From a virus: a DNA stretch of 64,000 nt. Position numbers and translations under genes: made by a program. The DNA is taken from the IMG/VR virus record IMGVR_UViG_3300034073_002480, positions 74,723 through 138,722 of that record; one strand, given 5' to 3'. Under the pieces are notes generated by a model, which ran no database searches, was not told the DNA's origin, and saw only the letters and a list, made by a program, of their open reading frames with translations. Numbering within the stretch: the stretch's first letter is position 1; each line of letters begins with the position of its first letter. Positions 1-64,000 of the stretch are shown here, one piece after another.

Positions 1-605
1 AATGCAAATGAACAAGCAAAGGATACGTAAAAGCGTAGTCCTTCCAAAATATTTGTTGAAACTAAGGTCAAATATAAAGAGGTATAAAGAGCCTTTTTTT
101 CTATGGTATCTGAGATATTTATAAGTTTGTTATATTGTTCACAAACAGTTAATGATCTTGCAAGAATTTCTTTTGTTGTCAAAATATCATCAAAAACAAG
201 ACTGGGGTTGGTATACACATTTTTTATTATGTATGTGTAACTACGACTATGGATGTTCTCAAAAAACTGCCAGATATTTAAGCAAGATTCAAGTTCAGGT
301 AAAGAGGCATATTGTCCTAATGATTGTAATATAGCTCGTCCTTGCACACTATCCAACAAAATCTGATACTGTAGATTAGACGTGAAGATATGACGTTCAC
401 CTTCAGAAAAATCTGCAAAATCTGATACATCTTTAGTAAGATCAAACTCTTCGGGAATCCAGAAATAACTTAACTGTCTCTTAGACAACACCTCTAACTT
501 AGGATGTTTTTGAACATCATAACGTTGTAAACCTAGATCAGCCCCGAAAAATAGAGGCTGATTTAGATAATCGTTAGTGTTCTTGTAATTAATAACACTA
601 CGCAT
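1..605 (-). CDS. nrdB: Ribonucleotide reductase class Ia beta subunit (runs off the window start)
   Basis: Not in the ORF track. Manual translation from ATG at 605: MRSVINYKNTNDYLNQPLFFG...FWIPEEFDLTKD...QILLDSVQGR...WQFFENIHSRSYTYII (diiron EXXH plus the radical Tyr). Directly follows nrdA. Confidence 0.95.
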   Translation of the reverse strand, partial: MRSVINYKNTNDYLNQPLFFGADLGLQRYDVQKHPKLEVLSKRQLSYFWIPEEFDLTKDVSDFADFSEGERHIFTSNLQYQILLDSVQGRAILQSLGQYASLPELESCLNIWQFFENIHSRSYTYIIKNVYTNPSLVFDDILTTKEILARSLTVCEQYNKLINISDTIEKKALYTSLYLTLVSTNILEGLRFYVSFACSFA

Positions 606-606
606 A

Positions 607-2835
607 TTAGATTGCACAAGCTCCTGAATCACATCCTGATTCTGTTTGGTCTGAGTTCATGTCATAAGTATTGTGATAATACAAAGTTTTGATACCCCAC
701 TTGTAAGCATTGAGAATGTCACGCAATACAATTTCCAACGGAATTTGTTGGTTATCATAGAAAAGAGGGTTATAATTAAGATTAGTAGAAATCGCTTGGT
801 CAAAGAATTTCTGCATAATAGCTACAACTTTAAGATAACCTTCATTATTAGGGATAGACCACAAATACTGATACTCTAACGTATTATATTCAGGTGTCAA
901 GATTTTAATAACAGAAGATTTGGAACCTTTGTTCGTAAGAGCCTGTCTTGGTGGTTCAATACCATTAGTAGCATTAGCGCAAATTGCAGAACTTTCACTG
1001 GGCATAATTGCTGTGAGCGTTGAATTACGCAAACCATCCACAGCAATTCTGTGCCTAAGTTCCTCCCAATCATGTTGCAAATCAAAAGAAGCAAAAGAGT
1101 CTACATCTTTTTTGTAAGTATCTATTGGTAGCAATCCATGTGCGTACTTGGTTTCAGCAAATAAATCACAAGCACCTCTCTCTCTAGCAAGATTATTAGA
1201 TGCTATTAACAACCAATACTGAGTAGATTCCGCAATTTGATGTACTTTTTCTCTGGTATGATTAGAGTCCCATTTTAATCCATTTTTAGCTAACCAGTAA
1301 GCAAAATTGATGTACCCAACACCAATATTGCGCCGTAGAAGAGAAGATTTAGCTGCCATTGTAAATGGATACTCTTGGAGATCCACAATAGAATCAAGAG
1401 AACGCACAATAAGATCAGCAAGCTCTGGCATCTCTTTTTCTATGTTTGGATAACCAAGATTAAAAGCTGATAAAATACAAGTTGCAATTTCACCGTTTGG
1501 ATCATCTAGTGATTGGAAAGTCTCTGTTGGTAGCGTAATTTCGAGGCAGAGGTTGGATTGCCAAATCTTTCTAATAAAAGAACTGTGATAATTAGCATGA
1601 TCAATGTTGAAAATATACAACCGACCTGTCTCTGATCTCTCCGTTACAATTTGCAGTAACAAGTCATAAGCATTTATAGTTGTGCGTGGTACAGAGGACT
1701 GCTCGTACTTCAAATATAAATCCTCAAATTCTGGCAAACCGAAAGCAGCTAATAAATCCTGTACATCATTAGGGTTAAACAGACTTATATCTTGTTTTTT
1801 CAACGCACGGTCATAAAACAATCGTGATAATGCAATACCGTAGTCTAATTTCCTAGCACGATTCTCATCATTACCTTTATTATTTTTGAGTACAAGGTAT
1901 TGATCTACATCTGAATGCCAGAAAGGGTAGAAGAGAGTCGCTGACCCTTTTCTTAAACCACCTTGTGAGCATGAACCAATAGTTGATTCAAACATCTTTA
2001 CAAAACCAACAGCACCAGTATGTTTTACTTCACCATTACGAACAGTGGAACCTAAAGCTCTGATAGCACTGAAGTCCAAACCAATGCCAGCACGTTGAGC
2101 TACATATTTACCAAGCACAGTATTTGATGCAAAAATAGAATCTAAAGAATCATCTACACGAATCAACACACAACTTGAATACTGCTTTGTTGGTGTTCGT
2201 ACACCAGCAAGAATAGGAGTTGCAAGACTGATTTTGTGTAGTGAAATAGCGTCATAGTAGCGCCTTACATAGTCCAATCTTGTCTCTTTTGGGTACTGTG
2301 AAAACAAGACAGCAGCAATCAAAATGTAAGCTACTTGTGGTGTTTCATGATAAGTTTGGTGTACACGATGACGAACCAAATATTTGTCGTAAACTTGCTT
2401 CAAACCAGCGTAGGTAAAATTGAAATCTCGTGTGTGGTCAATAAATGATTCAATTTCCAACCACTCGTCCATAGAATAAAGGGTTAGTAAGTCATCCTGA
2501 TATAATTTCTCTTCTACGTTCTTGGTGATTAAACCCACCAAAGATGTTGGTTCAAATTGTTTATAGACTTTCTTACGAATAGAGGTTAACAACAACCGTG
2601 CTGCTGCCCATTGATAATCAGGAGTACGCGGAGTTATAAGATCAACTGCTGATCTAATTAATAGATCTTGTATGGCATCTGTTGTAATACCATCTGTAAA
2701 CTGTAGACGTGCATTCATTTCGATCTGTGAAATTGATACGTTTTCCACACCAGCACAACATACGGAAAGCATTGAATGTATCTTTTCTACGTTGAGGTTT
2801 TCTGTAGTACCGTCTCGCTTCGTTACAGTTAGCAT
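607..2835 (-). CDS. nrdA: Ribonucleotide reductase class Ia alpha subunit with N-terminal ATP cone
   Basis: VTKRDG ATP cone, SSCVL, SNLCLEI catalytic motif, KTLYY, C-terminal CxxxxC (CDSGAC). Confidence 0.97.
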   Translation of the reverse strand: MLTVTKRDGTTENLNVEKIHSMLSVCCAGVENVSISQIEMNARLQFTDGITTDAIQDLLIRSAVDLITPRTPDYQWAAARLLLTSIRKKVYKQFEPTSLVGLITKNVEEKLYQDDLLTLYSMDEWLEIESFIDHTRDFNFTYAGLKQVYDKYLVRHRVHQTYHETPQVAYILIAAVLFSQYPKETRLDYVRRYYDAISLHKISLATPILAGVRTPTKQYSSCVLIRVDDSLDSIFASNTVLGKYVAQRAGIGLDFSAIRALGSTVRNGEVKHTGAVGFVKMFESTIGSCSQGGLRKGSATLFYPFWHSDVDQYLVLKNNKGNDENRARKLDYGIALSRLFYDRALKKQDISLFNPNDVQDLLAAFGLPEFEDLYLKYEQSSVPRTTINAYDLLLQIVTERSETGRLYIFNIDHANYHSSFIRKIWQSNLCLEITLPTETFQSLDDPNGEIATCILSAFNLGYPNIEKEMPELADLIVRSLDSIVDLQEYPFTMAAKSSLLRRNIGVGYINFAYWLAKNGLKWDSNHTREKVHQIAESTQYWLLIASNNLARERGACDLFAETKYAHGLLPIDTYKKDVDSFASFDLQHDWEELRHRIAVDGLRNSTLTAIMPSESSAICANATNGIEPPRQALTNKGSKSSVIKILTPEYNTLEYQYLWSIPNNEGYLKVVAIMQKFFDQAISTNLNYNPLFYDNQQIPLEIVLRDILNAYKWGIKTLYYHNTYDMNSDQTESGCDSGACAI

Positions 2836-4151
2836 TTATACCTCTTGTTCTAGTGTAAGTTCTTGTGGGATATCGGAGTCAGGTGTAAGTAGCAAAACAC
2901 GACCACCTTGTGCCAGTACTTGTTTGATTTGAATAGCAATATCAAACTCTTCTCGTGAAAAAGGTAGATTATAGTACAGAGTTTTATCTGGTGTATAGTC
3001 TAAAACCTGATCCAAATTACCTTCTGTGATTAAACGTAAATATTCAAGTTCATCGCCAGTAGGTTGTAATGTAATAGTTAGATAATCATGTATCATATTT
3101 GTTGATTCTTGAGATTAGTTGTTCGATGATAGGCACATACATACAGCCAGCTTTGTAATAACCATCAACATACGCTTTGGCAAACGCAAGATCTGGTGAC
3201 GCACGAAAAATAGTTGCATAGTGCTGCAACTGTTCGTGTGATGGGCTTATACCTTTTATTCTGTTATTGAACTCTATCTCTGGCAACATACTTAGCGGTT
3301 GGATATAGTTTCTTTATTATACCATCTATTTTGGTAATATCAACTGTGCTAGGTAGTTTGTCAGTAAGGACTTCAATGTAGTTATTAGGTATAAACCGTA
3401 ACCACAAAAACGGTGACTCTTTTCGGGACTCTTGGTGTTTATAGAATCTAGACATGAGAAAAGTATATCACACAAACATACACTCTTCAATATACAGAGA
3501 ATCAAAAGTGTCAAGATAGTCAATCTTAAGCTCTTCTAACCTAACTCGGTCAAAAGAAGTTAATATTGATTGCAATGGCTGGTCACTACCTATCCTTCTA
3601 CCAACAAGAATATATAACCGTTCAGTAGATTCAAGCTGAGTCCGAAGTTTATCAAAATATGTAATTTTAAGATTATTTATAATGCGAAAAACAGCTTCAG
3701 GAGATTGGTAATTGTTAATACTCCTTGCTAATGCCTCATCGTACTCTTTAAATATTTTCATTGCTCTCTACCATTTGTTATAACATAGGTTCTAACCATT
3801 CAACTTTTAGTCTTAGATCATCAAAGTGAGTATATTTTGCAGACTCTAAAGATTTTATAATCAAAAGACCTGTTTGTTCAGAGAACTCGTCTTCGAGGTC
3901 AAACCATTCATACCCATCATCAGAAAACTGAATAACGTAAGCTTCCTGTGTATGTTTACTACCTTTAAAGGGCTGATAATCTAGACGGTATTGTATCATT
4001 ATTATCCTACCATGTGTTTATCTAGTTTCCACTCAGTGTTCAGCACAACAACCAGATTCTCCAATGTATCTGCAAAGTACATATAACCTTCACAGATACA
4101 ACAGTAGACTGGTTCATCAAAGCTTGTAGAGTCATAAAAGATGTTCATATG

Positions 4152-5036: not shown

Positions 5037-7769
5037 TTAGTGAACATCTGCCCAAGTCTTGCCAATCATATATTCCGCAGTTAAAGGTACGTTAAGTTTA
5101 TAATACTGACCAGCTTTTTCAACAGCTTGAAGTGCTAAATCTCCTGCTATAGAATAATAAATCTCATAACCGTCTTGAATCTGATGTGTAGCTGACCAGT
5201 TAGGGTTATCAACACGAAACTCACGAATTTCTTGCAAAACCGTAGAAGAGAAAGGTTTACCTTTTTTATTATATTCCCATTCAGTTACAGGAAAAAACTT
5301 GTGCGTGACTAAATCAACCGTTAGTTCATGCTCGGCTTCATCATGCATAGAGATGGTTTGCTGTGCATAGGATTTGTTTCTGTAATCTTCACTCCAAAAA
5401 TCACAAATCAAACCTACTGTTCTCAGCATACGATCATGTATAACCATTGCACGTTTAGCACAGATAACACCTGCTGATTGAAACAAAGCATTGATCAGTG
5501 AAGATTTAGAACGTGTTGGGATTTTACGACCATCAAGACCTAAAATAAACTTTTGCTGACCAATCTTTTGCCAATATTCTTCAAGCTTAGTTTTAAGTAA
5601 AGCTAAAGGTTTGGCGGATTCCCAGTAGGTTTCATGCACAAGTTTACCTGTATCTACATCTACACCAATAGTCTGCGCTACTTTTTTAGGACTACCTCCA
5701 TATGCACAACAGTAGGCAACGGATTTTGCAGGATCTCTTTTAAACTCATAACCAATAACCTCTGATATTTTTCTAGCTGTAATAGTATGACAATCTTGCC
5801 CTAAATCTTTATCACCTAGTAACGAATTGCAGTAAGGTTGTCCCTCAGTGTCATATCTAAATACATAGTGAGCTTGGATTCTAGACTCAAGCGCTCCGAA
5901 GTCGTATCCCTGTAAATAACAGTTATCCTCTACACCAAATAAAGATCTCATGTTCTCACCATACAAAGATGAAACTCTTGGGATATTGCATATCACACGA
6001 TGCTTCATGCGAGAAGTATTACAACCGTTAGAGTCTGCTGGCGAGGGAATCCTACCATCCTCATAGATACGAGAACTAGCTAGAAAACCTGCATCTGGTT
6101 CATCATCATCATTAAAATCATCATCAGGATCATAGGTATCAAACACAAAACCATTAGATGCAATACTGTTTCTTCTATGATTGTAGGTCAGATATTCTGA
6201 CACTTGTTTTGCATACGGAAACTTATCTGCAATCGCAGAAATAGCAGGATCAATTTCTTTTGACATACCAACCGTTAAAGAAGGGTTAGTATATACTTTC
6301 AAAGGTCGGTCTAACCTATGATTGAGTACCTTATTAATAAACTGTGTATTACTACGAACATCCAATTTCTCGAATCTAAACTTCTTGAATGGTGACACCA
6401 ATGTCTGATCAATATATCGTTGAGCAGTTTCTTGATATTTTTCAGGTGTTAATTTCTTCTTTTTGGTATCAACTGTAAGGTCTTTTTCTTTCCACTGTGT
6501 AGGTATCCAGCCCATACTACATAACCAACCTTTAAGATGAGTTACGTCTTGGATCGAAGCTGGTTCTTGCTGACGCAAAGGTTCTGTTGCTATAGGCAAA
6601 GCATAATCATTCCCTTCTATGTTGGCGTACCATTGGTCATTATTGTAGTGTAAAAAACCGTTATGCTTTTGTACCCAATTCTCAATGTTCACAGATAAAG
6701 TTGGTATGCAAGAAAACGGCACTGTATCTTGCTCTAATGGAACCGTAGAAGAAAATGAGTATAATGAGTCATCAATACGCAACCACAATACACCACTAGT
6801 ATCTTCAACAGGTACGTCACTGTAATCCTCTATAATCCCACCAACGGCTTCTGCATACCGCAACATAGCTTGTGATGGTGAGCCGTCTTTCTTGATTTGT
6901 ACTTTAGGTACTTGTGGTGCTTTCTCGTAGATTAATTGTCGTGCAGGTGGAGTCCACAGTTTCAGTTTAGCTTGTGTTAATGGTTTAGCTGGTATTACAG
7001 GTTCTACAAGTTCCCTGAGAGTTTGCATTTTACCGTCAAGATCTACAAGAAGTTCCTGCGCTAACTTAATGTCAAACTTGAAACCTCTATGTGATTGCTT
7101 GGTAATAATATCACGTACAGCTTGTTCTAACAACAAAGCAGAGTGCCAATTCCAGCCTTCCATCTCTCTTTCTAAGTGTAAAAACAATCGTGCAGTAATA
7201 GCAACGTCTGTCCTACAATAGACAAGCATCTCAGGATGGTAGACACGGAACTCTGCACCTTTGGGGTCGGACTTTATAATCAGCCCTAAGTCTATAGCTT
7301 TTTGTCGCCAGTTGATTTTAGGGAAACCAAATTCTTCACCCCAAGATTCCAAACTATGACCACCATATCGTTCAGAGTTGAGCAGTTTAGACATCACCAA
7401 TGTGTCACGAAACACAATAGGTTTGCCATTGAACATATCTTGTTCAGATGGATCACCAGCTACAAAATAGTCAATACCGAAGTAAGCTTTCAAAACTAAC
7501 CAGTCATAATCTAAACCATTTTGTGCAATAAAAAGTTCAACATCTGCATCTATAAAACAAAGCACATCATATGCAAAGTCTTCATGTGTTGCATAATCTG
7601 TACGAACAAAATTTACTTGCTGACCTGTATCAAGGTCAAGAAAACAGATACAGTGGATAACAAAGTTGTCTTTGATTTTATAAGGTGATTGTGTATAGTC
7701 TACTGATGTGTGATCCAAAAGCCCAGACGCTTCAATATCGAACGCCCATCTACCTTGTGTTTGTATCAT
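5037..7769 (-). CDS. Family A (T7-like) DNA polymerase with 3'-5' exonuclease
   Basis: ExoI FDIEA, ExoII NGLDYD, ExoIII YCRTD; motif A DFGALESR; motif B RDPAKSVAYCCAYG (Tyr at the 762-equivalent position, as in T7); motif C MHDE. Confidence 0.95.
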   Translation of the reverse strand: MIQTQGRWAFDIEASGLLDHTSVDYTQSPYKIKDNFVIHCICFLDLDTGQQVNFVRTDYATHEDFAYDVLCFIDADVELFIAQNGLDYDWLVLKAYFGIDYFVAGDPSEQDMFNGKPIVFRDTLVMSKLLNSERYGGHSLESWGEEFGFPKINWRQKAIDLGLIIKSDPKGAEFRVYHPEMLVYCRTDVAITARLFLHLEREMEGWNWHSALLLEQAVRDIITKQSHRGFKFDIKLAQELLVDLDGKMQTLRELVEPVIPAKPLTQAKLKLWTPPARQLIYEKAPQVPKVQIKKDGSPSQAMLRYAEAVGGIIEDYSDVPVEDTSGVLWLRIDDSLYSFSSTVPLEQDTVPFSCIPTLSVNIENWVQKHNGFLHYNNDQWYANIEGNDYALPIATEPLRQQEPASIQDVTHLKGWLCSMGWIPTQWKEKDLTVDTKKKKLTPEKYQETAQRYIDQTLVSPFKKFRFEKLDVRSNTQFINKVLNHRLDRPLKVYTNPSLTVGMSKEIDPAISAIADKFPYAKQVSEYLTYNHRRNSIASNGFVFDTYDPDDDFNDDDEPDAGFLASSRIYEDGRIPSPADSNGCNTSRMKHRVICNIPRVSSLYGENMRSLFGVEDNCYLQGYDFGALESRIQAHYVFRYDTEGQPYCNSLLGDKDLGQDCHTITARKISEVIGYEFKRDPAKSVAYCCAYGGSPKKVAQTIGVDVDTGKLVHETYWESAKPLALLKTKLEEYWQKIGQQKFILGLDGRKIPTRSKSSLINALFQSAGVICAKRAMVIHDRMLRTVGLICDFWSEDYRNKSYAQQTISMHDEAEHELTVDLVTHKFFPVTEWEYNKKGKPFSSTVLQEIREFRVDNPNWSATHQIQDGYEIYYSIAGDLALQAVEKAGQYYKLNVPLTAEYMIGKTWADVH

Positions 7770-8404: not shown

Positions 8405-10054
8405 TTAAAAAGAATCAGGACTTTGTGGATCGATCTCTTTTTCTTCTACGGTCACAGGTGTTTCCACCACAGGAACATAGAAAGAAAGGTTGTCTTCTGA
8501 TACCCATTCATCACCATTGTCAGCTAGTTGAAAATAGAATAGTTTTTCTTTTTCTTCTAACTTAGTGGCAACAACATCAACAACTAAACCATTATAAACA
8601 ACAGAGTCACCTACAGCATAAGGACAAGTTGTAGATAGTGCAACAACAAGATTACGTTCATCTTGTGACAACAAACGCATCACATTTTGTTTGAGTTGCA
8701 AAGACCAATCTTTTGTAAGGATACGAAGATCCTGTCTAGTTTTACACCGCACTAATGCATCTGCAAGTCGTGATTCATTGCTTATATGAACTAACAATGA
8801 TGATTCGTTGTCAAACCATGCACTGTTTTCAGGTATAGAATACACAAACTCTTTGTTTACACGATCAACCTCAATAATACACATTTCTCGTAGCTTGATT
8901 AGTGCATCCTCGTATTCAGAGCATTTGTTTATACCTAATTTAGCGCGTAATTCTTTATTAGTATATTTTTGGTGTGGTCGTGATGTTAATACACGGATGA
9001 TTTTATTTGACCATCCTTCGATAACAGGGTCAGCATCTTTTTCAGATTCGATCTCCATATGCCATCTACCACCTTCACCACGAACCATAGCTAAAACTAA
9101 AGTACGTGGTAAACCGTTACGAGGATAAGACTGCATTTCTGTTCTAGTTTGACCTTGTTCATTTTTAATCTTTGCAAACTTAAATAAACCATCATTTGCA
9201 GATGCAATAGAAGAGTGTCCTGAAGCACCACCAACATCCTTAGCACTCTTATTAGCATGGTGAATACAGATCCCTGTACAAAAGCCAGATTTAATAAACA
9301 CCTGTTGTAGACGATACATTAGTGGCGCTACTTCTGCACTGTTTTCAGATATACCAGTACCTGATAACATCATACGCAAACTATCAAAAGTTACAAGAGA
9401 TGGTTTGAAATCATAAATCATCTGCTCTAGCCTTGGAATATCTTCTAGAATATTAAATGACTTCTCAATCCTATATACATCACTGTATTTAAGGAAGGTA
9501 GCATTATCATCATCAAAACCCCGTTCAACCATCTTCATTGCAGCTAAAGACGCACCTTCCTCTAAATTAAAATCAAGTACTTTACCCTTTCTAACAGGTA
9601 TACCTAAAAAACTACCAGAGACAAGAATTGAATACTTTAAGTCTAGAATGTATGTTGACTTGCCACTTTTGCCAGATCCGAAGAAAAGATAAAAAGCAGC
9701 AGGTTGAAAAAATGATGGAACTAACCACTCACCTGCTTCACGACCTGCTTCAAGTATTTCACGAAAACTATAGGAACTTTTAAAGTTAGCGTCTAAAGTT
9801 GACTCTTCAAAGTCTAAATGCTCTTTGATCTGTTTTTCTTTGAATCCAAATTTTTCTACCCAACGCTCATATAATTGCACAATAATCTGGTCAGTAACAA
9901 TCTTACGTTGCAAACCTTTATATTGAGCAATAGTGGCTCTCGCCTTTGCTAAATCCGCAGTATAAGCATCTAGAAAACTATGTGTTGGCACAGTCTGTAT
10001 AATAGGTTCTTCTTCATAAACTTGTTCAGAATAATCAATAAATTCTTCATCCAC
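8405..10054 (-). CDS. SF4/RepA-like (AAA_25) replicative helicase
   Basis: Walker A GSGKSGKS, Walker B VTFDS, IHHANK...GASGHSS; coupled to the primase gene. Confidence 0.85.
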   Translation of the reverse strand: MDEEFIDYSEQVYEEEPIIQTVPTHSFLDAYTADLAKARATIAQYKGLQRKIVTDQIIVQLYERWVEKFGFKEKQIKEHLDFEESTLDANFKSSYSFREILEAGREAGEWLVPSFFQPAAFYLFFGSGKSGKSTYILDLKYSILVSGSFLGIPVRKGKVLDFNLEEGASLAAMKMVERGFDDDNATFLKYSDVYRIEKSFNILEDIPRLEQMIYDFKPSLVTFDSLRMMLSGTGISENSAEVAPLMYRLQQVFIKSGFCTGICIHHANKSAKDVGGASGHSSIASANDGLFKFAKIKNEQGQTRTEMQSYPRNGLPRTLVLAMVRGEGGRWHMEIESEKDADPVIEGWSNKIIRVLTSRPHQKYTNKELRAKLGINKCSEYEDALIKLREMCIIEVDRVNKEFVYSIPENSAWFDNESSLLVHISNESRLADALVRCKTRQDLRILTKDWSLQLKQNVMRLLSQDERNLVVALSTTCPYAVGDSVVYNGLVVDVVATKLEEKEKLFYFQLADNGDEWVSEDNLSFYVPVVETPVTVEEKEIDPQSPDSF

Positions 10055-10937
10055 GATAATCCATCCACAAATACACTAAATCTTGAATCTCGTACTCACA
10101 ATCAGCAATATCAAACCCATCATCAGGTGAAGCACCAGACCGTAGAAAAGAAGGATTGATGACTGTACACTCTAGCCCATTACGCCAGCAAGCATTAGCA
10201 ACCATATGTGATTTTTTCCGACCAGCAGTGTCGTTGTCCTCGAAGTATAGCACACCTCGCAAACCGTAGGAAACCAATCTCCGAGCTGCATTGTCTAAAT
10301 ACTCTGGTGTAAAACAAAAACCAGCAGGTGTAAGACATTCATATGTCTGGTTGGTTACTGATACACAACATTTTTCACCTTCAGCCATCATAATATGGTT
10401 GCCTTCTAAGTCAGCTTTAGGCAGTTCACCACTTATTTCTTCGTTGTAGGTAAATAGATGCTGTTCATTAAATAACAACCATTGTTGTGAACCCGTACCT
10501 GACACATAGTTACTGTTTTTTAGATACTGTGGAGCTACAATCTTCTTACCATCTTTACTGATAAATCTAACTGTCTGGTGATAAGCAGTATAAACATAGT
10601 ATTTACGATCAATCTCCTCATCACGCGCACAACGCACGAAATGGCTCTCCAAGGCAAGCAAAACATCACTAGGTATGTACAGAGGTTCAGAGTCTAAATA
10701 ACGTCTAGCGGCGCGTCTAGGTGTACGTAAATTAGTTTTTATATAGGGCGTGTAACGCGCCACAGAATCACGTATCTTTCTAGTAGAGCAGTCATTAGCG
10801 TAGCATTTATAAGCACCTGTAGAAGCATTGATTTTCAGCTTGTGTGTATGACAAACAGGGCAGTCAACCAACAACCAACTACCTTTTTCTTCTACGTTCT
10901 CTAGTTTTTCTGTGTAGTCAAGGATGTTGAAAGTCAT
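10047..10937 (-). CDS. DNA primase (Zn finger + TOPRIM)
   Basis: CPVC...CYANDC zinc finger; AEGEK, EDNDTAG and DIAD TOPRIM motifs. Confidence 0.85.
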   Translation of the reverse strand: MTFNILDYTEKLENVEEKGSWLLVDCPVCHTHKLKINASTGAYKCYANDCSTRKIRDSVARYTPYIKTNLRTPRRAARRYLDSEPLYIPSDVLLALESHFVRCARDEEIDRKYYVYTAYHQTVRFISKDGKKIVAPQYLKNSNYVSGTGSQQWLLFNEQHLFTYNEEISGELPKADLEGNHIMMAEGEKCCVSVTNQTYECLTPAGFCFTPEYLDNAARRLVSYGLRGVLYFEDNDTAGRKKSHMVANACWRNGLECTVINPSFLRSGASPDDGFDIADCEYEIQDLVYLWMDYRG

Positions 10938-50487: not shown

Positions 50488-50489
50488 TA

Positions 50490-50810: not shown

Positions 50811-50815
50811 TAACT

Positions 50816-52322: not shown

Positions 52323-53020
52323 AATTTCTGGTAGATACTTTGACTCAATATAATCTGCTGGTATTACACAAGGATAAGGTACATGGAACTCAATACCTGT
52401 TATATCTTTGTATCTTGAACCTCCATATCTTTGCACAATGATTTGAGAATCTTGTAGAAATGGAAAGTCTTTCTTGGCAACAGTGACCAACTCCTGAATA
52501 GCAGATATATTTTTACCATAGTGGTCAGGTAAAATAGCTGCGTTGTTGTTGTAGCATATAAGTTTTTTCATATCAAAACTTAGGTTGTTTTATATAATCT
52601 AAACGTTCAAAAAAAGAAGCTTCAATTGTAGTCAATTCTTGTAGACGTTCATCTAAAGTTTCTTGTAATAGATAAACTTCTTTATTAGAATCTCTGAAAC
52701 CTAACCACCAACCAAGATGACTTTTTGTTAAAACAACATTACTATCTGTGATATTGCGGTCAAACCAAAATTGTAGTAAAAAAGCTTCAGTAGGATCTAA
52801 ATCTTGAATAGCGAAATCATCATCTCCAATACGAATTGCTGTGTAGTTACGATTGTCAGCAACAACAACTCGGAAAAATTTTAGATTTGGGGTATCCATA
52901 TAAAACCTCTATTGATTAGTAACAGTAAAGCATAATCAACATAGAAAAGAAAGCAAAAGACATAAAAGTTAACAATGTCCAAACCCGATTATTTCAGGTT
53001 TATATCTGTTTAATTTCAGT

Positions 53021-55096
53021 CTAAAACTCTTCATCGTAGTCAGGCAGGTATAAATCATCCTCTTTATCTACAGATGGCAACTCATAAGTACCATTAAAAA
53101 TCTGCGATAGTAAGTTTTTAGCTTCCTCTGCCCATGATAGACCCTCAAGACCTACAGAGTAACCTTCAACAATTAGATCAGAGGTTTCCGCTTTTTCAAG
53201 TAGTTTGTTGTCAATAAATTTATCTACATCTGTGTGAGAAATCCAGTAGGAAGTTACAGGATTTTTCTGCCCTTGTCTATGGCATCTGCCCTCTAGCTGC
53301 TCGTTGAGATTCCAGTCTCTATCAACCAAGATAACTTTACAAGCAGAGAACAAGTTGATACCAACACCTCCAGCTTGTGCCATTGCTACAATACAATCTA
53401 AATTTTTGCTCTGAAAAGCATCAAACATAGGTTGACGTTGTTTTTGAGGTGTAGAGCCTGTCAACAAACCAACAGAAAAACCAGCATTTTGTATAGCTTC
53501 TGTTAATTTTTCTGCTGTGTCACGGAAAGTGGTAAACAACACAACCTGCTCACCAGAATCACCATCAACACCTTGTAGAATAGAGAGTGCCATATCTAAC
53601 GAGGTTTCGATTTTCGCAATAGAACCTGCATGTCTAAGATGGTTGAGTAATACTAATTCCCAACCTTCATTAGAAATCTCGGAATCAGCTACACGTTGAT
53701 TGTATTCTGCTTGAAGTTCTAAAAATACACGGTTGTATTCTTTTTGTGCTTCTGGTGATAACTCACCTTCAACTACTTCTCTAGTAAAAGGTGGTAAAAC
53801 AAGAACATCTTTTTTCTTTCTACGAATCATAACAGGCTGTTCTTTTGTCAGAATGTCGTGTAGCTCTTTTAAATGCCCTTGAGACAACGAACCATATCGG
53901 TCGTAGAATTTTTTCTTATTGTTTGCCAGAGGATGTTTCAACCCTTTGAGGATAGGTAGAATATCCAAAGGCGCACCGTTTTTAATAGGAGTAGCAGACA
54001 TTGCGATGTTAGCGATCAAGTGTGGTGATTCACACAACGCCAACCACTTCTTAGTCCTTTGACTACCAAAATTTTTAAACGCATGACACTCATCAGTGAT
54101 TAGAACAAACTTACGATTAATGCTTGTAGCTAAAGGAATACGTCCTGCTGTTTGTCCAACAACTTGTATTTTGCAACCAACATATTCTGCTTCTCGATAC
54201 CAATTAGACATTGTGGAAATTGGTACGATGCAGATGATATCACAATCAAATACTTGCTGATAAGTAGCAGCAGCTTTGAGACTCTGAATCGTCTTACCAA
54301 GCCCTAAATCGTCACCTACAAGAACTTTCTCATGCTCAAAAATAAACCGTACACACTCTTTCTGGTAATCATGTAGCAACCAACCATTTGCCAGAGGTTC
54401 ATCTAGTCGTGCTACTTTGAGCAATTTGTTGACCCTAGCCTGTTGTGCTTCCTTGCGGATCTCAAGTTCAAGTGCAGCCAATTTTCTTCTTTTCTCTTGT
54501 TCTGCCTTAGAAGCCAAAACTTCGGGGGCATAATCAAAATGTGTGCTAGGTAGCACTTGTTGCAAAGCGTCCAACCAGTCCAATGGCAACTGCCAGTATT
54601 TAGTAGGTTCTCCCAAGTACTTAGCTACAGTATGACCTTGCACTTGTATAGTCTTGATTGCTTTTACCCAAGGGTAGAAGTTAGACGGCATCTGGACTGT
54701 AAGTAGACTGTCTTGGAGAAAAACTCGACCCATAGAAGATAAAGTAGCAGGTGGTAGCTTTGTTACAACAGGTTGATAAGGGTAGAGTCGTTCACGTTCT
54801 CGTAACCAGATATCTAACTCCCCTGTTGTTGGTAGTTTTATACCAGCAGGTGCAAGTTGACGGTTATTATGCCGCCACAGAATTTTAAGAATCTTTTGTG
54901 TCTGTAGATCAGACAGTCGCTGTTTTGCTGCTTGTCGGGCAATAGATGTACCAAATACAGTAGATGCACCATCAAACCCAATATTGTTACGTTGAGAAGC
55001 ATTATCAGGGTCGTTGCGTAGCATAATTGCTAGTGCTGCCTCAATTTCTGGGTGATTCTGGTTAGCTGTGATGTCAAATGTTACAGTTGTAGTCAT
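53021..55096 (-). CDS. SNF2-family helicase/translocase
   Basis: DDLGLGKT, DECH, SATPIKN, RRKKKDVL, GINL, QLEGRCHRQGQ. Confidence 0.92.
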   Translation of the reverse strand: MTTTVTFDITANQNHPEIEAALAIMLRNDPDNASQRNNIGFDGASTVFGTSIARQAAKQRLSDLQTQKILKILWRHNNRQLAPAGIKLPTTGELDIWLRERERLYPYQPVVTKLPPATLSSMGRVFLQDSLLTVQMPSNFYPWVKAIKTIQVQGHTVAKYLGEPTKYWQLPLDWLDALQQVLPSTHFDYAPEVLASKAEQEKRRKLAALELEIRKEAQQARVNKLLKVARLDEPLANGWLLHDYQKECVRFIFEHEKVLVGDDLGLGKTIQSLKAAATYQQVFDCDIICIVPISTMSNWYREAEYVGCKIQVVGQTAGRIPLATSINRKFVLITDECHAFKNFGSQRTKKWLALCESPHLIANIAMSATPIKNGAPLDILPILKGLKHPLANNKKKFYDRYGSLSQGHLKELHDILTKEQPVMIRRKKKDVLVLPPFTREVVEGELSPEAQKEYNRVFLELQAEYNQRVADSEISNEGWELVLLNHLRHAGSIAKIETSLDMALSILQGVDGDSGEQVVLFTTFRDTAEKLTEAIQNAGFSVGLLTGSTPQKQRQPMFDAFQSKNLDCIVAMAQAGGVGINLFSACKVILVDRDWNLNEQLEGRCHRQGQKNPVTSYWISHTDVDKFIDNKLLEKAETSDLIVEGYSVGLEGLSWAEEAKNLLSQIFNGTYELPSVDKEDDLYLPDYDEEF

Positions 55097-55561
55097 TGTT
55101 TTTGTCCTAATGTGTTTGTTTTTCTACGGTGGATTAGTGTACCACCACGCCCTGCTAGGTACAGGGACGACTCCTTTTGTTTTATTTGCGTGGAGTCAGC
55201 AAAGTTAATCTACTTTTTTCAAATGTTCAAAAGCTTCTTGCCAGTTAACTCTGGACAATGCAGCGTTGATAAGGTCAGTTTGCATTGGATTGGTATTGTC
55301 AATGGGAAGTACAACAGATTCTACCCATTCTTGAAAGTCATCTTGGTTATCATGACTTCTTGTAGTAGAAAGGTGTCGTTGATTGTTCCCGATCTCCAAA
55401 ACTACTAAAAAAGTTTCGTAGTTTGTGTAGCCTTGATATGACTGGTCTTGCATGGAAAATAACCTAAAAATTTAATGTGCTGTTAGTTTATGCTTATATT
55501 GTCTAGCTGTTAATATAGACGTAATAATTCGTAACAATTAAACCTGAAAAAAGAAAGAAAT

Positions 55562-55672: not shown

Positions 55673-55989
55673 GATCTATAAGTAAATATAGATCATGTTT
55701 GAAGGAATACAGAGGTCATCTGCATACCAACCTCTGGATTTGATCTCGGTAGTCTTAAAAGATACAGTGTAGTCTGTGACAACCATACCTACTATAGTAT
55801 GACCATATTGCTCATGCCATACATGAGCAAGTTCTGCTAAATCCGTCTCAAACCAAGGATCAGGGTAGATAGTGACCATAGAAGAAAAGTGGGTAGGTAA
55901 CAGTTTCCCACGACCGCTTGTGCAGTACACAAGGGTTTCGGCTACCACTGTTGAGGTAGCCTCGTCAGGTGGTGTGCAAAGCACGGTAG

Positions 55990-57228
55990 CTACAATCGTG
56001 TTATTGTACCTCCCGATTTTTGTACACAAGTAGCAACATCAGGCTGGACGCGCCAATCACCTGACAAATCGACAAAGTGTACCTTGCAAGTAGCGTCAGG
56101 AGGTAATTGTTGAAAATTACGGATTTCACCGTCAGATAGCAGAACAATCTCTGACCTATGCAAATCTGGTTCTTGCTGCAAGATATCCCAAGCTGTACAA
56201 ACTACTTGTCCGTAAGATGTACCTTGAAAGTAGTTGTTTGTGTTGCAGACATGCAGCATGATGTCCTGTGCATTGTCCTTTGTGACTTGACCCTTGTAGA
56301 AGAAGTCATTACCAAACATTGCCAGATGCAGAGTGTCACCATGCTGGACTACTGATTGTATGCTGTCAAGCAACACAGCAGCAGCAGTCTTGTCACGTTG
56401 ACCTTGCATAGAAGAAGAACAATCTAACAACAAGAAACGAGCGAACTTCCTACGAGCTTTCTTTTGTGGTACAAGAACCTGTGATTGATTAGCTACTAAA
56501 CGTGCTAGTCTAGTATTGGTGTCATACACATACTCCGACCGAGCCATAAACCGAGCTTCTTGTAGTGACCTATTGGATCTTTGTTGAGCGAAGTCGGTGC
56601 GTTCTGTTGTATCTTTGTTTTTGCCTTTATTGTAGGCGAGTTTTTCTTTGAGAACCAACGCAATGTCAGCTACTTGTCCTAAAGCCTTGCGGATTTTACT
56701 GCTATGCAGACGGATGTCATCAATCTGTTCTTCTGTTCCGAGCATAGTAGACAGAAACCCAGAACCTTCTGATGCTTCTGCTTTGTCTTTGCTACGACCA
56801 AAACAAGGTACACAGTGATTGTCAGGTGACTCTACTCTATCTTTTTTGCTGGTTGATGGTAAACCGCCAGCTGCAAAAGCTTCGTTTATTTTCAGAATGT
56901 CATCTTCTATGGTATGAGACTGCACCCATCCAGACTTGATGCAGTGCAACACAAATTCCTTGACGGTGGCATCATAAGCAATCTGTTTGTCTGTAACACC
57001 TACAGGATCATACTTGAACGACCAACTACCTGTGTTTGCCAAAACGTGTGCCACATGCTCACGATAGACCGTAGAAGAAAAATCATGGTACTTCGACTTA
57101 CCAATAAGTAGGTGATATAAATCTTGCACGATAGTGTAGTCAAAGTGTAACCCACCAGTGGATTTGCAACGGAGGTCATATTCCGAGGGGATTTCTAACT
57201 GTGTAGGGTTGGCAATTCTGTGTGTCAT
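55990..57228 (-). CDS. VWA (MIDAS) domain protein, ViaA-like (start approximate)
   Basis: LLDCSSSM (DxSxS), GTS, LLSDG; adjacent to the MoxR ATPase. Confidence 0.8.
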   Translation of the reverse strand: MTHRIANPTQLEIPSEYDLRCKSTGGLHFDYTIVQDLYHLLIGKSKYHDFSSTVYREHVAHVLANTGSWSFKYDPVGVTDKQIAYDATVKEFVLHCIKSGWVQSHTIEDDILKINEAFAAGGLPSTSKKDRVESPDNHCVPCFGRSKDKAEASEGSGFLSTMLGTEEQIDDIRLHSSKIRKALGQVADIALVLKEKLAYNKGKNKDTTERTDFAQQRSNRSLQEARFMARSEYVYDTNTRLARLVANQSQVLVPQKKARRKFARFLLLDCSSSMQGQRDKTAAAVLLDSIQSVVQHGDTLHLAMFGNDFFYKGQVTKDNAQDIMLHVCNTNNYFQGTSYGQVVCTAWDILQQEPDLHRSEIVLLSDGEIRNFQQLPPDATCKVHFVDLSGDWRVQPDVATCVQKSGGTITRL

Positions 57229-58782: not shown

Positions 58783-58809
58783 AAAAAAGGTAGGGCTTAC
58801 AACCCTACC
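58783..58809 (-). terminator. Intrinsic terminator
   Basis: GGTAGGG/CCCTACC stem plus T6. Confidence 0.7.
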
Positions 58810-59248
58810 ACATAGAAGAGAAGTGTAGATTACCAAAGTTTTGTCAAAACAAAACCAGACTCGATGCGTGAGAAACGAAAGTAGTTGAGAATTGCTTCTA
58901 ACGTATTGTAGAATTGATCTTCTGTCTGGTAAACAAAACTAGGGTATACCGAGAACATGACTACAACTTGGTTGAACCTATCGTGACAACCAGATGCTTT
59001 ACTACCAGCATCAACACGAATGACTTCTGAAACCAGAATTTCTAAATCACTGTAATATGCAAGAAAATATTCGTCTACTTGCTCTGGTGTAAACCTATCT
59101 GGGAAATTAGCCTTCAAAGAAGCTGCAATACAAGAAGCGATAGAGAAAGGTGAATAACTAGCTGTAGCCCCAGTATCTTTATGGCAAGCAGCTACTTGTA
59201 CGGTTGTGAAATTAACTTGCATTTGTTTTTATCCTTGTAGAATATGAA

Positions 59249-59310: not shown

Positions 59311-60113
59311 ACCATAGAAGAGAAGTGTGTTGTGTTTCTCTTCTATGTTGTAGTTAGTTGTCTTGTTGTGTGAGATCGTGGATAATCAAGTAGTCACAGT
59401 CAATATGATAAACACGATAAGCTCTATCGGTGTTACGAGAAAATTCCACACAATAGATATCTGTACGAGCAGGCAACGGATGCACATAAGCTAGATGCTC
59501 CTGTACTGATGCTTGCAACTGCAACGCCATATAAATGCAACGTGCATGATAGTCAGAGTTAATAGTTACCAAACAATCCGCACTTTTTTCTGTCAACGAT
59601 GGTTTGTACTGCAACCGCGACAGAATAGTGTACAAGAGGTCGTTCTGACCTGCGTGGTTTTCAGAGCAGTACCAGTACAATGCTTGATAATAATCTGCAT
59701 AAGTGAGAGTTGAAATTTGCTTGACCGTAGAAAGAAATAGTTCAGACATTGTATTAACCTAGTGCGTAGTCTACGAGTTTGTTGTAATCTGTAAATACTG
59801 CTTTGAGTTGTTCTGTACCATCTGGTGCTACCCAAATTAAATACCAAAAACCCATAAAGCGAAAGTAGGTGAGATAAGCTACTGTGTTTTGCATGATAGA
59901 AAGAAAGTTTTATGATCAGATCATCTAGATAAACTTAAATACGAATAGCAACTGCAAAAGTAAACTCACGCCAGAAATAATCAAGAGTTTGGCAAACGAA
60001 AGGTGTCATCAACAGCAGACCACGTTTTGTATCGTGTTTGACTGCTTCAAGATAAAACCACATTTCTGCTAATGCAGATGTCTGTAAGATATAAAGCATT
60101 GTGTTTTGTCCTT

Positions 60114-61061: not shown

Positions 61062-61473
61062 GACCATAGAAGAGAGTTGTTAGCTTCTCTTCTATGTTGG
61101 TGTGTTATTTATAAGTGTCAACTGCTTTACCGTCAACAAAAGTAAATTCACGAAACAAAACTGCACCATCGTCTTCGGGGTCAAGTGTTGGATCTTCATA
61201 CCAAGCTATGTATATAGCTGTATTTTCTACATGGGCGATAGAGGTTAGTAGCAACCCCTCGTACTCCACACAAATAGCTTGTGCTGCTTCTTTGATGACT
61301 GGAGGGATATCTGCGTGCCAGTCGTAAACTGCGGTGTCAATATACTCCTCTTCGTCTTGTAATAAGTACCAATCTGCATCAAACTGGTCTTCAATCATTT
61401 GGTCTTCTGTTGTATGTGTCATTTTTTTTCTCCTGTAAAAGAATTGTACAACTTTTGACTACTTTAGTGCAGT

Positions 61474-61514: not shown

Positions 61515-61947
61515 GATAGTTCTGCAAGTCTAGATGTAATACTCGGTAATGATTGTTCACACGTTCAAACTCCTCAGTATCAGTAAGAGCTATGTAGATT
61601 TCTAATTCCCGATCACTAGATAATGCAGTGCAAACCTCTTCAACTGTAGCCCAACCTGAACCAATTACTGCCTTAATCTCTTTTAATAACTCTGACATAA
61701 CTAATAACCTATCGATCTATTTGTGCCGTACTATATTAACCCTATAAGCTATATATAGCAATGGTTACATCCTGATTTGTTACAAAAAGACATAAATCTT
61801 ATTATAAGTTCATTAAATAACCTGATATCTAGATGAATTTCAGTCAAATATCGTATATGGTTGTTGTTTGGTATCATAGGATACATTTCTGTATCTGCAA
61901 AGAAAAAAAGTACCTTGTAGGGTACGTCCATGACCATAGAAGAGAAG

Positions 61948-62697
61948 TTAGGTAGTTATATACAAACCATTGGTGTTCTTAACATTCTTATTTGTTGTAG
62001 TAAACCATTGGTTAAGGTCAGTAGCTTTAGCTTTCTTAAACATACCTAGAGAGTCATATATACCCTGTAGCTTGTTTTTAATATCTTTTAATGTATAAAA
62101 AGAATTAAGTTGAAATTCTACATATACAGCTTGTTGTAGATCTTGTTGAATCTCTGGTCTTGCATCTGCTAATGCTTGTTTGATTCTAGTAGGATTAAGA
62201 CCTAATGCTTTCATTTTCTTGACACCTAGCAGATTGTAAGCATCACGGATATCAGGGGCGTATACTTGTAACTGATCTACTGTTATATCACCTGCATCAT
62301 ATAACTCTACAACATCTTTAAAAACAGTTGATCCACCTTTATCTTTAACAACCTGCCTCAAAGCCGATCTACAATTAAAAAATGGTAATGTCTTCTTGTA
62401 TTGAAGGATATCAGGTAGTACAAGTTGTGAGTTCTTAGTACAATACAGTTTAGAGTTATTGTAAGGAGGTTTAAACAAACTGATGTAGTAAGTCTCGTAA
62501 ATCTCTACATCTAACTCAGACTCTAATTCTATATATTGAATATTGCCACGATCAATATCTACCTTCCATTCAGTCCCTTCAAGCTTATCTTCTATGTGAT
62601 ACCTAATACGACTTAGTAGATTGTTAGTTTTACCGATGTAAAGTAATTTACCACTACTATTATGAAGAAAATAGACTGCTTTTATAGATTGTGTCAT
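61948..62697 (-). CDS. GIY-YIG domain protein with an unrelated C-terminal helical domain
   Basis: AVYFL...LYIGKT..L..R...E.YYI....PPYN. Confidence 0.75.
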   Translation of the reverse strand: MTQSIKAVYFLHNSSGKLLYIGKTNNLLSRIRYHIEDKLEGTEWKVDIDRGNIQYIELESELDVEIYETYYISLFKPPYNNSKLYCTKNSQLVLPDILQYKKTLPFFNCRSALRQVVKDKGGSTVFKDVVELYDAGDITVDQLQVYAPDIRDAYNLLGVKKMKALGLNPTRIKQALADARPEIQQDLQQAVYVEFQLNSFYTLKDIKNKLQGIYDSLGMFKKAKATDLNQWFTTTNKNVKNTNGLYITT

Positions 62698-63499: not shown

Positions 63500-63529
63500 A
63501 TTTACTTAGGTATTTTGCAAGGTATAGCT

Positions 63530-63592
63530 ACCTAACTAAAGTCAAAAAATACCCTTACCTATGGCAGAAAATCACCTAACTAAAGTCAAAAA
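63530..63592. repeat. 19-bp direct repeat pair (ACCTAACTAAAGTCAAAAA), 44-bp period
   Basis: Copies at 63530 and 63574; partial copy at 63606. Confidence 0.85.
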
Positions 63593-64000
63593 TATCCTCA
63601 AACATACCTAACAAAATAGTAACGCTAGAATCAGGGTTTGAGGTATTTATGGGACGATTTTTTTACACTTGGTATACTGCTGCTCATCCTTCAGAAAGGG
63701 AGATAAACGTGACCGATAGGGAACATCCTTTTAGAAGTAGGTTTAACAGTTACAAAAAAATAATATTTTGCGGCGTTAAAAAAATTCCCCTACATAAAAA
63801 TAAAAAACTACCTAGTAAAAATTTAAGTAGTTTATAAAAATTCTGATGTAATAGGTATATACACCAAAGACCATATAAAAAATCCTACCGTAAAAAAAAA
63901 ATAAAAAAAATTCCCCTAAAAAATAAAAAATAAAAAAAATCCTGCCATAAAAAATACAACAGACCATAGAAAGAAAGGGTAGTGTTATACCATGCAACCT

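Follow-up and report, generated by a model that had tools for sequence, protein, structure and literature searches.

A 16-nt word regularly spaced along each strand of a freshwater cyanophage-like genome, and a primase as its candidate reader

The window examined here is the last 64 kb of the 138,722-bp record of a freshwater cyanophage-like virus (G000:C1:74723-138722; the whole genome is referred to as G000). It has a G+C content of 36–41 %, and almost all of its genes lie on the - strand. The phage is present in 24 listed metagenome sequencing runs, all in the form of assembled contigs, which come from several studies and sample freshwater, lake water and the subsurface. The window is dotted with copies of a 16-nt word, A-[C/A]-C-R-T-A-G-A-A-R-A-R-A-A-R-G, which is a selected recognition site that operates at the level of DNA and is neither a protein motif nor a signature of the host. 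The word is enriched, conserved site by site and regularly spaced along each strand, and words of the same design but different sequence are found in related phages, where they travel with a primase-helicase gene pair. The reading that we favour, though in our estimation the question is evenly balanced on the sequence and comparative data, is that the word is a strand-specific replication signal, most probably the extended template site of the phage's own primase, which would be of the T7 gp4 class and act with the adjacent helicase.

The first-pass annotation of the window put the core, CCRTAGAA, at about 38 copies on the + strand and about 22 on the - strand and held it to be enriched. Exact matching returned 62 copies (38 + and 24 -), among them every position that had been listed, and in 100 dinucleotide-preserving shuffles of the window the mean was 2.83 (standard deviation 1.78, maximum 8) with none of the 100 reaching 62, so that both the count and the enrichment were borne out. 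Genome-wide there are 114 copies (65 + and 49 -), and when these sites were aligned, information extended over approximately 16 nt and lay at background level outside, giving the consensus above. An unbiased k-mer ranking of the whole 138.7-kb genome places both forms of the word first. The variant ACRTAGAA occurs 72 times genome-wide and carries the RARAA tail in 24 of these, and A at the first position is the sole single-base change to the core that is tolerated, any other such variant having at most two tail-bearing copies in the genome. The working definition of the word family is MCRTAGAA, which is found 92 times in the window, where 9.16 copies are expected, and 186 times in the genome (98 + and 88 -). 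None of the 40 listed variant positions (of 642) in four metagenome runs falls in a word, with approximately one expected by chance. In the literature searched, neither this word nor priming words spaced evenly in phage genomes were described, and nothing was found on lineage-specific words that are selected per site and spaced per strand. A megablast search with 12 kb against cultured phages gave no match, and a first motif scan of viral contigs returned 70 stretches, each with a single match, of which only those of a related record, G001, recurred (three stretches).

The sites were placed relative to 198 open reading frame (ORF)-based gene calls, which make 90 % of the genome coding. Most core sites (94 of 114) lie inside called genes, 37 in the sense orientation in frames 1 and 2 and 57 antisense in all three frames, the other 20 being intergenic or partial. 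All five frames that avoid a stop codon are occupied, in agreement with the earlier remark that the word sits in genes in different frames and in both orientations. Synonymous codons were then shuffled in 300 runs, preserving every protein and the codon usage of each gene and leaving the 20 intergenic copies unshuffled in the null, and this yielded 34.7±3.4 copies (maximum 45) against the 114 observed. Of the MCRTAGAA sites in the genome, 74 are sense, 79 antisense and 33 intergenic; 82 % are thus in genes, and intergenic DNA, which makes up 10 % of the genome, holds 18 % of the sites. Positions within genes are uniform and 102 of the 198 genes are free of the word, close to the 107 expected from a Poisson distribution. 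Hence, the pattern is not an artefact of gene structure.

Conservation of individual sites was assessed using G001, a 131,991-bp viral record that is syntenic with G000 and approximately 72 % identical to it over 54.5 kb of alignable DNA. G001 includes 67 copies of the core, against 8 of a reversed control pattern, and the same word heads its k-mer list. The core was kept at the orthologous position in G001 for 34 of the 51 alignable G000 sites, whereas 13.5 % of 107,864 random 8-nt windows were kept, a retention 5-fold above background. The 16-nt word is 82 % identical between the two genomes and its 30-nt flanks are 70 % identical, no more than the genome average, and the differences within sites are often those that the consensus allows (an exchange of A and G where it has R, or A in place of the initial C). 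A codon-shuffled null and conservation in relatives were the checks put forward in the first-pass annotation, and its general claim, that the word is a recognition site and not a protein motif, came through both, as well as through the survey of cyanobacterial genomes described below.

That the word is a by-product, left by a miniature mobile element, by biased mutation or by a preference for certain codons or peptides, is hardly credible, as there is no information outside the 16 nt, the copies occupy five frames and both orientations, the enrichment survives the codon null and the sites are retained above background at orthologous positions. A mobile element or a compositional artefact is excluded; the miniature mobile element was rejected as a candidate because the sites have no conserved flanks and two-thirds of those alignable (34 of 51) are at orthologous positions. 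Repressor sites of the stoperator type were also considered. The stoperators of Cluster A mycobacteriophages are 13–14-bp asymmetric sites, present at approximately 25–35 per genome, mostly intergenic and oriented with transcription, whereas the word, with 82 % of its sites in genes and a sense to antisense ratio of 74/79, is neither mostly intergenic nor oriented with transcription, and this candidate was rejected.

Chi and the DNA uptake sequences (DUS) and uptake signal sequences (USS) are also dispersed, non-palindromic, found in both orientations without regard to reading frame and sometimes paired as terminator-like hairpins, but they are properties of host genomes that are read by host machinery. 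The first-pass annotation had included a Chi-like role among its suggestions, and a word that is read by a host enzyme (Chi-like, with RecBCD/AddAB) or that mimics a host uptake or signature sequence would likewise be asymmetric, dispersed and frame-independent. We consider this highly unlikely. CCRTAGAARARAA, of which the 139-kb phage has 56 copies, reached a maximum of 13 copies in 3.3 Mb among 401 cyanobacterial genomes, with counts mostly like those of a reversed-pattern control, and the word is not enriched in these genomes; the cyanobacterial phylum was taken as the likely host group from the Pseudanabaena relatives described below, and the result covers the 401 genomes sampled. In a scan of a genome collection, which is a weak test, the 80 stretches listed of at least 120 that matched were single matches from unrelated taxa. 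Chi is 5–8 nt in length whereas the word is approximately 16 nt, there is no switch of polarity along the genome, and each phage lineage has its own word.

Along either strand the word is spaced more evenly than chance allows. In G000 the gaps between MCRTAGAA copies have a coefficient of variation (CV) of 0.57 on the + strand (n=98) and 0.65 on the - strand (n=88), the corresponding values for G001 being 0.65 and 0.62, where the null lies at approximately 0.97–0.99±0.10–0.13 (0.99±0.10 for random placement in G000 and G001, P<0.001); for the window alone the per-strand values are 0.47 and 0.69. The largest per-strand gaps are smaller than under the null, and the mean per-strand gaps, 1.4–1.6 kb for this word and 1.4–2.3 kb across G000, G001 and the more distant relative G007, are on the scale of Okazaki fragments. 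When the strands were pooled the CV was 0.73 (G000) and 0.81 (G001), equal to that of a strand-rotation null, and hence the two strands are placed independently in both genomes. Every 20-kb bin of G000 contains 9–16 sites per strand with no polarity switch across the 138.7 kb, and seven control words of similar frequency in G000 showed no regular spacing. A spacing analysis had been called for at the outset, and the regularity that it uncovers belongs to each strand separately.

The candidate reader is P0001, a 296-aa protein with a zinc ribbon and a TOPRIM domain, whose gene adjoins that of a 549-aa DnaB/RepA-like helicase (Table 1). In an alignment of 18 homologues, the Cys4 ribbon, EGEKC, DxDxxGxxK and a distal Asp are invariant, and none of the lineages compared has lost a zinc or catalytic residue. 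In all, 31 homologues were found, several of them on contigs of 80–137 kb, including P0028 at 39 % identity. P0001 has a weak N-terminal match to the PHROG 'DNA primase' family. Its AlphaFold2 model (predicted local distance difference test score, pLDDT, 83.5) gave as the best Foldseek match the T7 gp4 primase fragment 1NUI (E 1.8e-5), followed by Twinkle, further T7 gp4 chains and then the DnaG proteins of Aquifex, Pseudomonas and Bacillus, with the Aquifex match spanning the zinc-binding plus polymerase domains. Set against this, P0001 falls below the Pfam thresholds (E=0.16 for Toprim_3, the zinc ribbon also being sub-threshold), the Pfam Toprim_2, DnaG zinc-ribbon and Prim-Pol models match nothing in the genome, and the TM-scores to 1NUI are low (0.33 and 0.39) with a large root mean square deviation, though the low scores perhaps come from the relative placement of the two domains in the model. 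The motifs and structural matches place a primase with zinc-binding and TOPRIM catalytic domains in this genome, short of the Pfam thresholds, and from the sequence and the model we take P0001 to be a divergent member of the T7 gp4/DnaG class.

Loci that keep the G000 word have primases that share 77 % (L120), 70 % (G001) and 53 % (L121) identity with P0001. Relatives that were found via the primase alignment at 26–29 % identity do not have this word, and each has a dominant word of its own. In G007 it is WGTCCGAAAYAAWWAGG, also written (A/T)GTCCGAAAYAAWWAGG, and the core GTCCGAAA is present in 101 copies (52 + and 49 -) where 3 are expected, with a CV of 0.59 and 0.60 per strand and 0.82 when pooled. 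L123 and L124 share GTAAGAAAA followed by purines, found 13 times on the + strand and 14 times on the - strand in the 20.8 kb of L123 (per-strand CV 0.64 and 0.59, pooled 0.93, with low power). The G006 word is GNTAGAAA (G-N-T-A-GAAA), which is present in 181 copies with all four N variants enriched. In the cultured Pseudanabaena phages PA-SR01 and Pam2 the word is (G)RCAGAAAARRA, and CAGAAAAGAA occurs 24 times in PA-SR01 (1.0 expected) and 15 times in the part of Pam2 analysed (0.4 expected). All of these words consist of a short specific head and an A-rich tail that starts with GAA(A). Six further loci (G010, L089, L091, L095, L101 and L122), with primase similarity of no more than 29 %, in several of them confined to part of the protein, showed no clear dispersed word and are left out of the lineage count. 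An apparent word in L128 was excluded, as it belongs to a CRISPR-like tandem array (positions 519-1644, approximately 18 repeats, 66-bp period) on a metagenome contig that has, in addition, a gene for a remote homologue of the primase (20 % identity). A baseline built on single exact 9-mers within 12-kb pieces, with 23 unrelated loci as controls, was dropped as non-discriminating, one control having a 10-copy word.

With tblastn (E≤1e-4), only eight of the 198 G000 proteins could be matched in each of G006, G007 and PA-SR01, namely the helicase and the primase together with the terminase large subunit, a head protease, the major head protein and three structural-block proteins of unassigned function. 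The primase and helicase are the only non-structural proteins common to the four genomes, and the DNA polymerase is not common. Aeromonas phage phiA047 served as the single negative control. Judged by the polymerase (46 % identity) no cultured phage is more closely related, but it has no tblastn match to P0001 and carries a separately annotated 'DNA primase' gene; in its 100 kb there is no such word, and the top 8-mer is the Shine-Dalgarno-like AAGGAGAA (z=9). A search of viral contigs for relatives using the DNA polymerase found none. The lineage-specific words thus travel with the primase-helicase pair. In PA-SR01 (MT234670.1, 110061-112356), the primase homologue lies under two overlapping coding sequences (CDS) annotated 'hypothetical protein', and ORF extraction there gave only 6 aa, whereas the Pam2 orthologue, Pam2_126, is a single CDS annotated as a DNA primase; this discrepancy may be due to a frameshift or a difference in annotation.

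The common set also includes six proteins of the head and packaging block, three of them of unassigned function, and these lend some weight to the idea of a phage protein that binds the word as duplex DNA and serves to organise, condense, protect or package the genome. A word that is selected, phage-specific and dispersed would suit such a role, as would the excess of close inverted pairs in G007, where 21 % of + copies have a - copy within 60 bp against 5 % expected and pairs are much commoner than in G000 or G001. We regard it as unlikely, because an organiser of duplex DNA should generate regularity in the pooled sites whereas the regularity is per strand, with the strands independent in G000 and G001, because a one-way packaging motor predicts a single orientation whereas the counts are 98/88 in G000, 52/49 in G007 and 13/14 in L123 and there is no polarity switch, and because no candidate DNA-binding protein was identified. 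Binding by such a protein was the main idea of the first-pass annotation, with genome organisation and packaging or ejection among the functions offered; most of that list is now disfavoured, and it did not contain priming of the lagging strand by a phage primase.

For DnaG-type primases, PMC2910064 describes a zinc-binding domain that reads a template trinucleotide on single-stranded DNA, the 3' base being cryptic, and primers of 11, 5 or 4 nt. The T7 primase, according to a 2026 report (PMC12839067), uses effective templates composed of a 2-nt 5' flank, G-T-C, an 8-nt A/T-rich 'discriminator' and a 2-nt '-10 element' (TA, TG, GA or GG); C at flank positions 9–10 abolishes binding, positions beyond 10 are nearly without effect, and candidate sites lie at intervals of approximately 1–6 kb. 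Read as a T7-type template, the word divides into M-C / R-T-A / GAARARAA / R-G (2+3+8+2). In G000 and G001 the information covers flank positions 1–10 and drops to 0.06 and 0.10 at position 11. More than four of flank positions 1–8 are A or T in 94 % of G000 sites (92–94 % in G000 and G001), and C occupies flank positions 9–10 in 10 % (10–12 % in the two genomes), where approximately 34 % is estimated from base composition. The T7-type extended-site pattern is therefore present in G000 and G001, and L123 and L124 are similar.

On the primase reading, P0001 and the adjacent DnaB-like helicase would bind the single-stranded word and start the primers of Okazaki fragments there. In the polarity that we favour (model B), the word strand itself would be the lagging-strand template, with M-C as the 5' flank, R-T-A containing the cryptic A, GAARARAA as the 8-nt discriminator and a distal R-G that avoids C; the A at position -1, together with the head and cryptic base, would make up a copied stretch of 5 nt, and the predicted primer is pppA-Y-G-K(-U). 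In the alternative (model A), the complement (5'-..TTCT-A-YGGT-3') would be the template, synthesis would start at C-T-A, and the purine tail AGAARARAARG would be an 11-nt primer. Because a site of this length is too rare by chance, the genome would have to carry it at Okazaki intervals on both strands and through its genes, and for the same reason an excess of sites in intergenic DNA (18 % in 10 % of the genome) would arise under either model. The inverted pairs at 59313-59347, 61065-61096 and 20970-21010 would be two priming sites, one per strand, in free space. A purine-only primer, a two-letter alphabet like that of the A/C primers of T7, was also considered; it fits G000 but fails for G007, the tail of which includes T and C.

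A number of points weigh against the primase as reader. Every argument that links it to the word is correlative, the association comes from five lineages and one negative control, and the mapping onto the T7 layout was made after the T7 paper was known. The 10-nt flank is seen only in the G000 clade and in L123 and L124, the length being 13 nt in G007, approximately 8 nt in PA-SR01 and approximately 4 nt in G006. Of the distal dinucleotides in G000, 37 % are among the four of T7 and the commonest, AG, is not. A trinucleotide with a central pyrimidine and a 3' cryptic base can be read in each word (here R-T-A or, on the complementary strand, C-T-A; in other lineages GTC, GTA, NTA and RCA), which is compatible with a priming site without being diagnostic of one, such triplets being common. 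Model A also fits the published numbers, and computation does not separate it from model B. Known DnaG-class primases require only 3–5 specified nt (PMC2910064), and a requirement for 16 nt would be unprecedented. The words of G006 and PA-SR01, which are shorter and diluted with chance matches, do not show the regular spacing again; it is significant there on one strand only and under some definitions. Sites occur on both strands from end to end of the genome, whereas the T7 candidates were looked for on a single strand to each side of the origin (PMC12839067). Finally, the three common structural-block proteins without an assigned function could be alternative readers.

Another factor that reads single strands, for example the DnaB-like helicase during loading, pausing or fork restart, or a recombination-dependent start of replication, is quite unlikely in our view, though the helicase has exactly the same association with the words as the primase, has approximately 370 residues outside the AAA_25 core without a family assignment, and strand-wise spacing suits any factor that tracks along one strand. 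However, no replicative helicase is known to us that reads a word of 16 nt, and the 2+3+8+2 fit is specific to a primase.

Nicking had also been suggested in the first-pass annotation, and the word would then mark site-specific single-strand nicks like those of T5, the phiKMV-like phages, tf and Rembedalsseter. The Rembedalsseter nick motif, WACTRTGAC, found in 13 copies and also reported for 60 relatives, is like the word in being asymmetric, at least 9 nt long, located in genes, enriched and conserved within a phage group (PMC11780129), and two GIY-YIG endonuclease genes lie in the window. This explanation is decidedly unlikely. All 13 Rembedalsseter copies are on one strand (PMC11780129), whereas there are 186 here, shared equally between the strands at approximately one per 1.5 kb on each, and the closest opposite-strand copies, only 26–31 bp apart, would have the two strands nicked no more than a few turns of the helix apart. 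The other lineages do not share the GIY-YIG genes, and a scan of 43 proteins of the window with Pfam and/or PHROGs identified no dedicated nickase.

To our knowledge, no DnaG-type site is a long, spaced word written into a genome. The sites of E. coli DnaG, T4 gp61 and T7 gp4 specify three to five bases and so occur frequently by chance, though the primer sizes of these enzymes (PMC2910064) fit the head of the word, at 5 nt (model B), as well as its tail, at 11 nt (model A). The extended site of T7 gp4 resembles the word in its 2-nt 5' flank, central-T trinucleotide, 8-nt A(/T)-rich stretch and C-intolerant distal 2 nt, in that nothing past flank position 10 matters, in its kb-range intervals and in the zinc-binding and TOPRIM domains of the enzyme; as described in PMC12839067, however, the T7 flank is a loose preference that picks approximately 26 of 177 pentanucleotide sites, with no over-represented word. 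Here, 16 nt are nearly fixed, over-represented 20- to 30-fold, conserved per site and evenly spaced on both strands. In addition, primase and helicase are here two polypeptides, the trinucleotide would be R-T-A and the commonest distal dinucleotide is AG, though the G007 word starts with T7's own G-T-C.

The start points of Okazaki fragments are usually treated as stochastic, arising from a 3-nt code and the kinetics of the replisome. If the primase reading is correct, they would be genetically fixed in these phages and predictable from the sequence, the specificity of a primase would be expandable to the length of a promoter, and replication would impose amino acid 'scars' on essential proteins. 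A phage could restrict priming to its own DNA, and a primase that is efficient only on its own genome would amount to self-restricted replication, with the word co-evolving with the zinc-binding domain. Primases could then be paired with their recognition words across uncultured phages from sequence only. More tentatively, cyanophage-like siphoviruses that include PA-SR01 and Pam2 may have turned the trinucleotide priming code into a lineage-specific 'primase promoter' of approximately 8–17 nt placed every 1.5–2 kb per strand, a possibility towards which we lean less than towards the reading of the G000 word itself. A primase site grown to promoter-like length and hard-wired in the genome would have as its nearest counterparts in print the T7 multi-site model (PMC12839067) and the Rembedalsseter motif (PMC11780129). 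Since a word built in the same way is present in two relatives in culture, PA-SR01 and Pam2, the idea is open to testing at the bench. Even with another reader, lineage-specific words that are selected by site and spaced by strand are a phenomenon new to the literature searched.

Table 1. Coordinates of the word copies and of other features in the 64-kb window
Feature	Position	Strand	Basis or remark
Zinc-ribbon + TOPRIM primase P0001, 296 aa (candidate reader)	10047..10937	-	Motifs, AlphaFold2 model, Foldseek
DnaB/RepA-like helicase, 549 aa	8405..10054	-	AAA_25; gene start overlaps the primase gene by 8 nt
Inverted pair of two word copies (hairpin), upstream of hammerhead-like cassette	59313..59347	.	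100 % complementary arms
Inverted pair of two word copies (hairpin), upstream of hammerhead-like cassette	61065..61096	.	100 % complementary arms
GIY-YIG endonuclease gene	29360-30157	+	Pfam/PHROG scan
GIY-YIG endonuclease gene	61948-62697	-	Pfam/PHROG scan
Word copy	92..107	-	CC head
Word copy	1332..1347	+	CC head
Word copy	1431..1446	-	AC head
Word copy	2468..2483	+	CC head
Word copy	2505..2520	-	AC head
Word copy	2778..2793	-	AC head
Word copy	5239..5254	+	CC head
Word copy	6608..6623	-	AC head
Word copy	6742..6757	+	CC head
Word copy	8437..8452	-	CC head
Word copy	8474..8489	+	AC head
Word copy	10139..10154	+	CC head
Word copy	10883..10898	-	AC head
Word copy	11836..11851	+	CC head
Word copy	12177..12192	-	CC head
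Word copy	12918..12933	-	CC head
Word copy	13128..13143	+	AC head
Word copy	14013..14028	+	CC head
Word copy	14718..14733	-	AC head
Word copy	14860..14875	+	CC head
Word copy	15612..15627	+	AC head
Word copy	15761..15776	-	AC head
Word copy	16393..16408	+	CC head
Word copy	16626..16641	-	CC head
Word copy	17152..17167	+	CC head
Word copy	17331..17346	-	CC head
Word copy	17828..17843	-	AC head
Word copy	18085..18100	-	CC head
Word copy	18777..18792	-	CC head
Word copy	19270..19285	+	CC head
Word copy	20538..20553	+	AC head
Word copy	20970..20985	+	CC head; inverted pair with 20995..21010
Word copy	20995..21010	-	CC head; inverted pair with 20970..20985
Word copy	22450..22465	+	AC head
Word copy	23389..23404	-	CC head
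Word copy	24138..24153	+	AC head
Word copy	25171..25186	-	CC head
Word copy	25426..25441	-	CC head
Word copy	26642..26657	+	CC head
Word copy	26824..26839	-	CC head
Word copy	27303..27318	+	CC head
Word copy	28636..28651	+	CC head
Word copy	28869..28884	-	CC head
Word copy	29189..29204	-	AC head
Word copy	29741..29756	-	AC head
Word copy	31627..31642	+	CC head
Word copy	32520..32535	-	AC head
Word copy	33555..33570	+	CC head
Word copy	34684..34699	+	CC head
Word copy	34897..34912	-	CC head
Word copy	35163..35178	+	AC head
Word copy	35237..35252	-	CC head, adjoining GC-rich hairpin
Word copy	36546..36561	-	AC head
Word copy	36918..36933	-	CC head
Word copy	37163..37178	+	CC head
Word copy	38925..38940	-	CC head
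Word copy	39008..39023	+	CC head
Word copy	40443..40458	+	AC head
Word copy	41216..41231	+	CC head
Word copy	41727..41742	-	AC head
Word copy	42232..42247	+	AC head
Word copy	42897..42912	+	CC head
Word copy	42970..42985	+	CC head
Word copy	43243..43258	-	AC head
Word copy	43904..43919	+	CC head
Word copy	43935..43950	-	AC head
Word copy	44895..44910	-	AC head
Word copy	45356..45371	+	CC head
Word copy	45895..45910	-	CC head
Word copy	46125..46140	+	CC head
Core match	47214..47229	-	Without purine tail, possibly chance copy
Word copy	47445..47460	+	CC head
Word copy	48447..48462	+	CC head
Word copy	48691..48706	-	CC head
Word copy	49610..49625	-	CC head
Core match	50271..50286	+	Atypical tail
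Word copy	51710..51725	+	CC head
Word copy	52938..52953	+	AC head
Word copy	54729..54744	+	CC head
Word copy	55115..55130	-	CC head
Word copy	55875..55890	+	CC head
Word copy	56898..56913	-	CC head
Word copy	57068..57083	+	CC head
Word copy	58809..58824	+	AC head
Word copy	59311..59326	+	CC head, hairpin arm
Word copy	59334..59349	-	AC head, hairpin arm
Word copy	59724..59739	+	CC head
Word copy	61063..61078	+	CC head, hairpin arm
Word copy	61083..61098	-	AC head, hairpin arm
Word copy	61933..61948	+	CC head
Word copy	62583..62598	-	AC head
Word copy	63963..63978	+	CC head

Two cassettes on the - strand, 59200-59360 and 60950-61110, each consist of a word hairpin and then a hammerhead-like core, upstream of the start of the next gene. 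The cores were recognised by eye as CUGAUGA ... GAAA with paired stems and a GUC. Rfam found neither a ribozyme nor any other family near the word, either at the gathering threshold over the whole window or at E≤1 in 58800-61600, where the latter scan gave two weak matches far under their gathering scores. The inverted pairs that the first-pass annotation saw next to both ribozymes are real, with fully complementary arms, but the ribozymes themselves are not called by Rfam and are hammerhead-like by eye. As for the flanking of terminators described in the first-pass annotation, one example was noted, the site at 35244 with its adjoining GC-rich hairpin.

Five RNA- or tRNA-repair-like genes, all on the - strand, are found at 14551-15183, 25139-26233, 38269-39648, 42917-43810 and 44263-44949, and the set consists of two RNA-ligase-like proteins, an RlaP nucleotidyltransferase, a poly(A)-polymerase/CCA-adding-type head domain and a Thg1-like 3'-5' polymerase. 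The GIY-YIG gene on the + strand is the only sizeable + gene in a long block of - genes, as expected of a homing endonuclease. A 272-aa protein encoded at 4152-4970 (-), without a PHROG match, is 74 % identical to a region of PA-SR01 whereas other shared proteins are 27–51 % identical, which suggests a recent exchange. Contigs from two metagenome runs (X5 and X13) join position 48466 to 53191 with 33 other letters between, and some strains appear to lack the approximately 4.7 kb at 48466-53191. A tRNA-Met gene (anticodon CAT) is located at 19324-19397 (-), approximately 40 nt from the word copy at 19270-19285.

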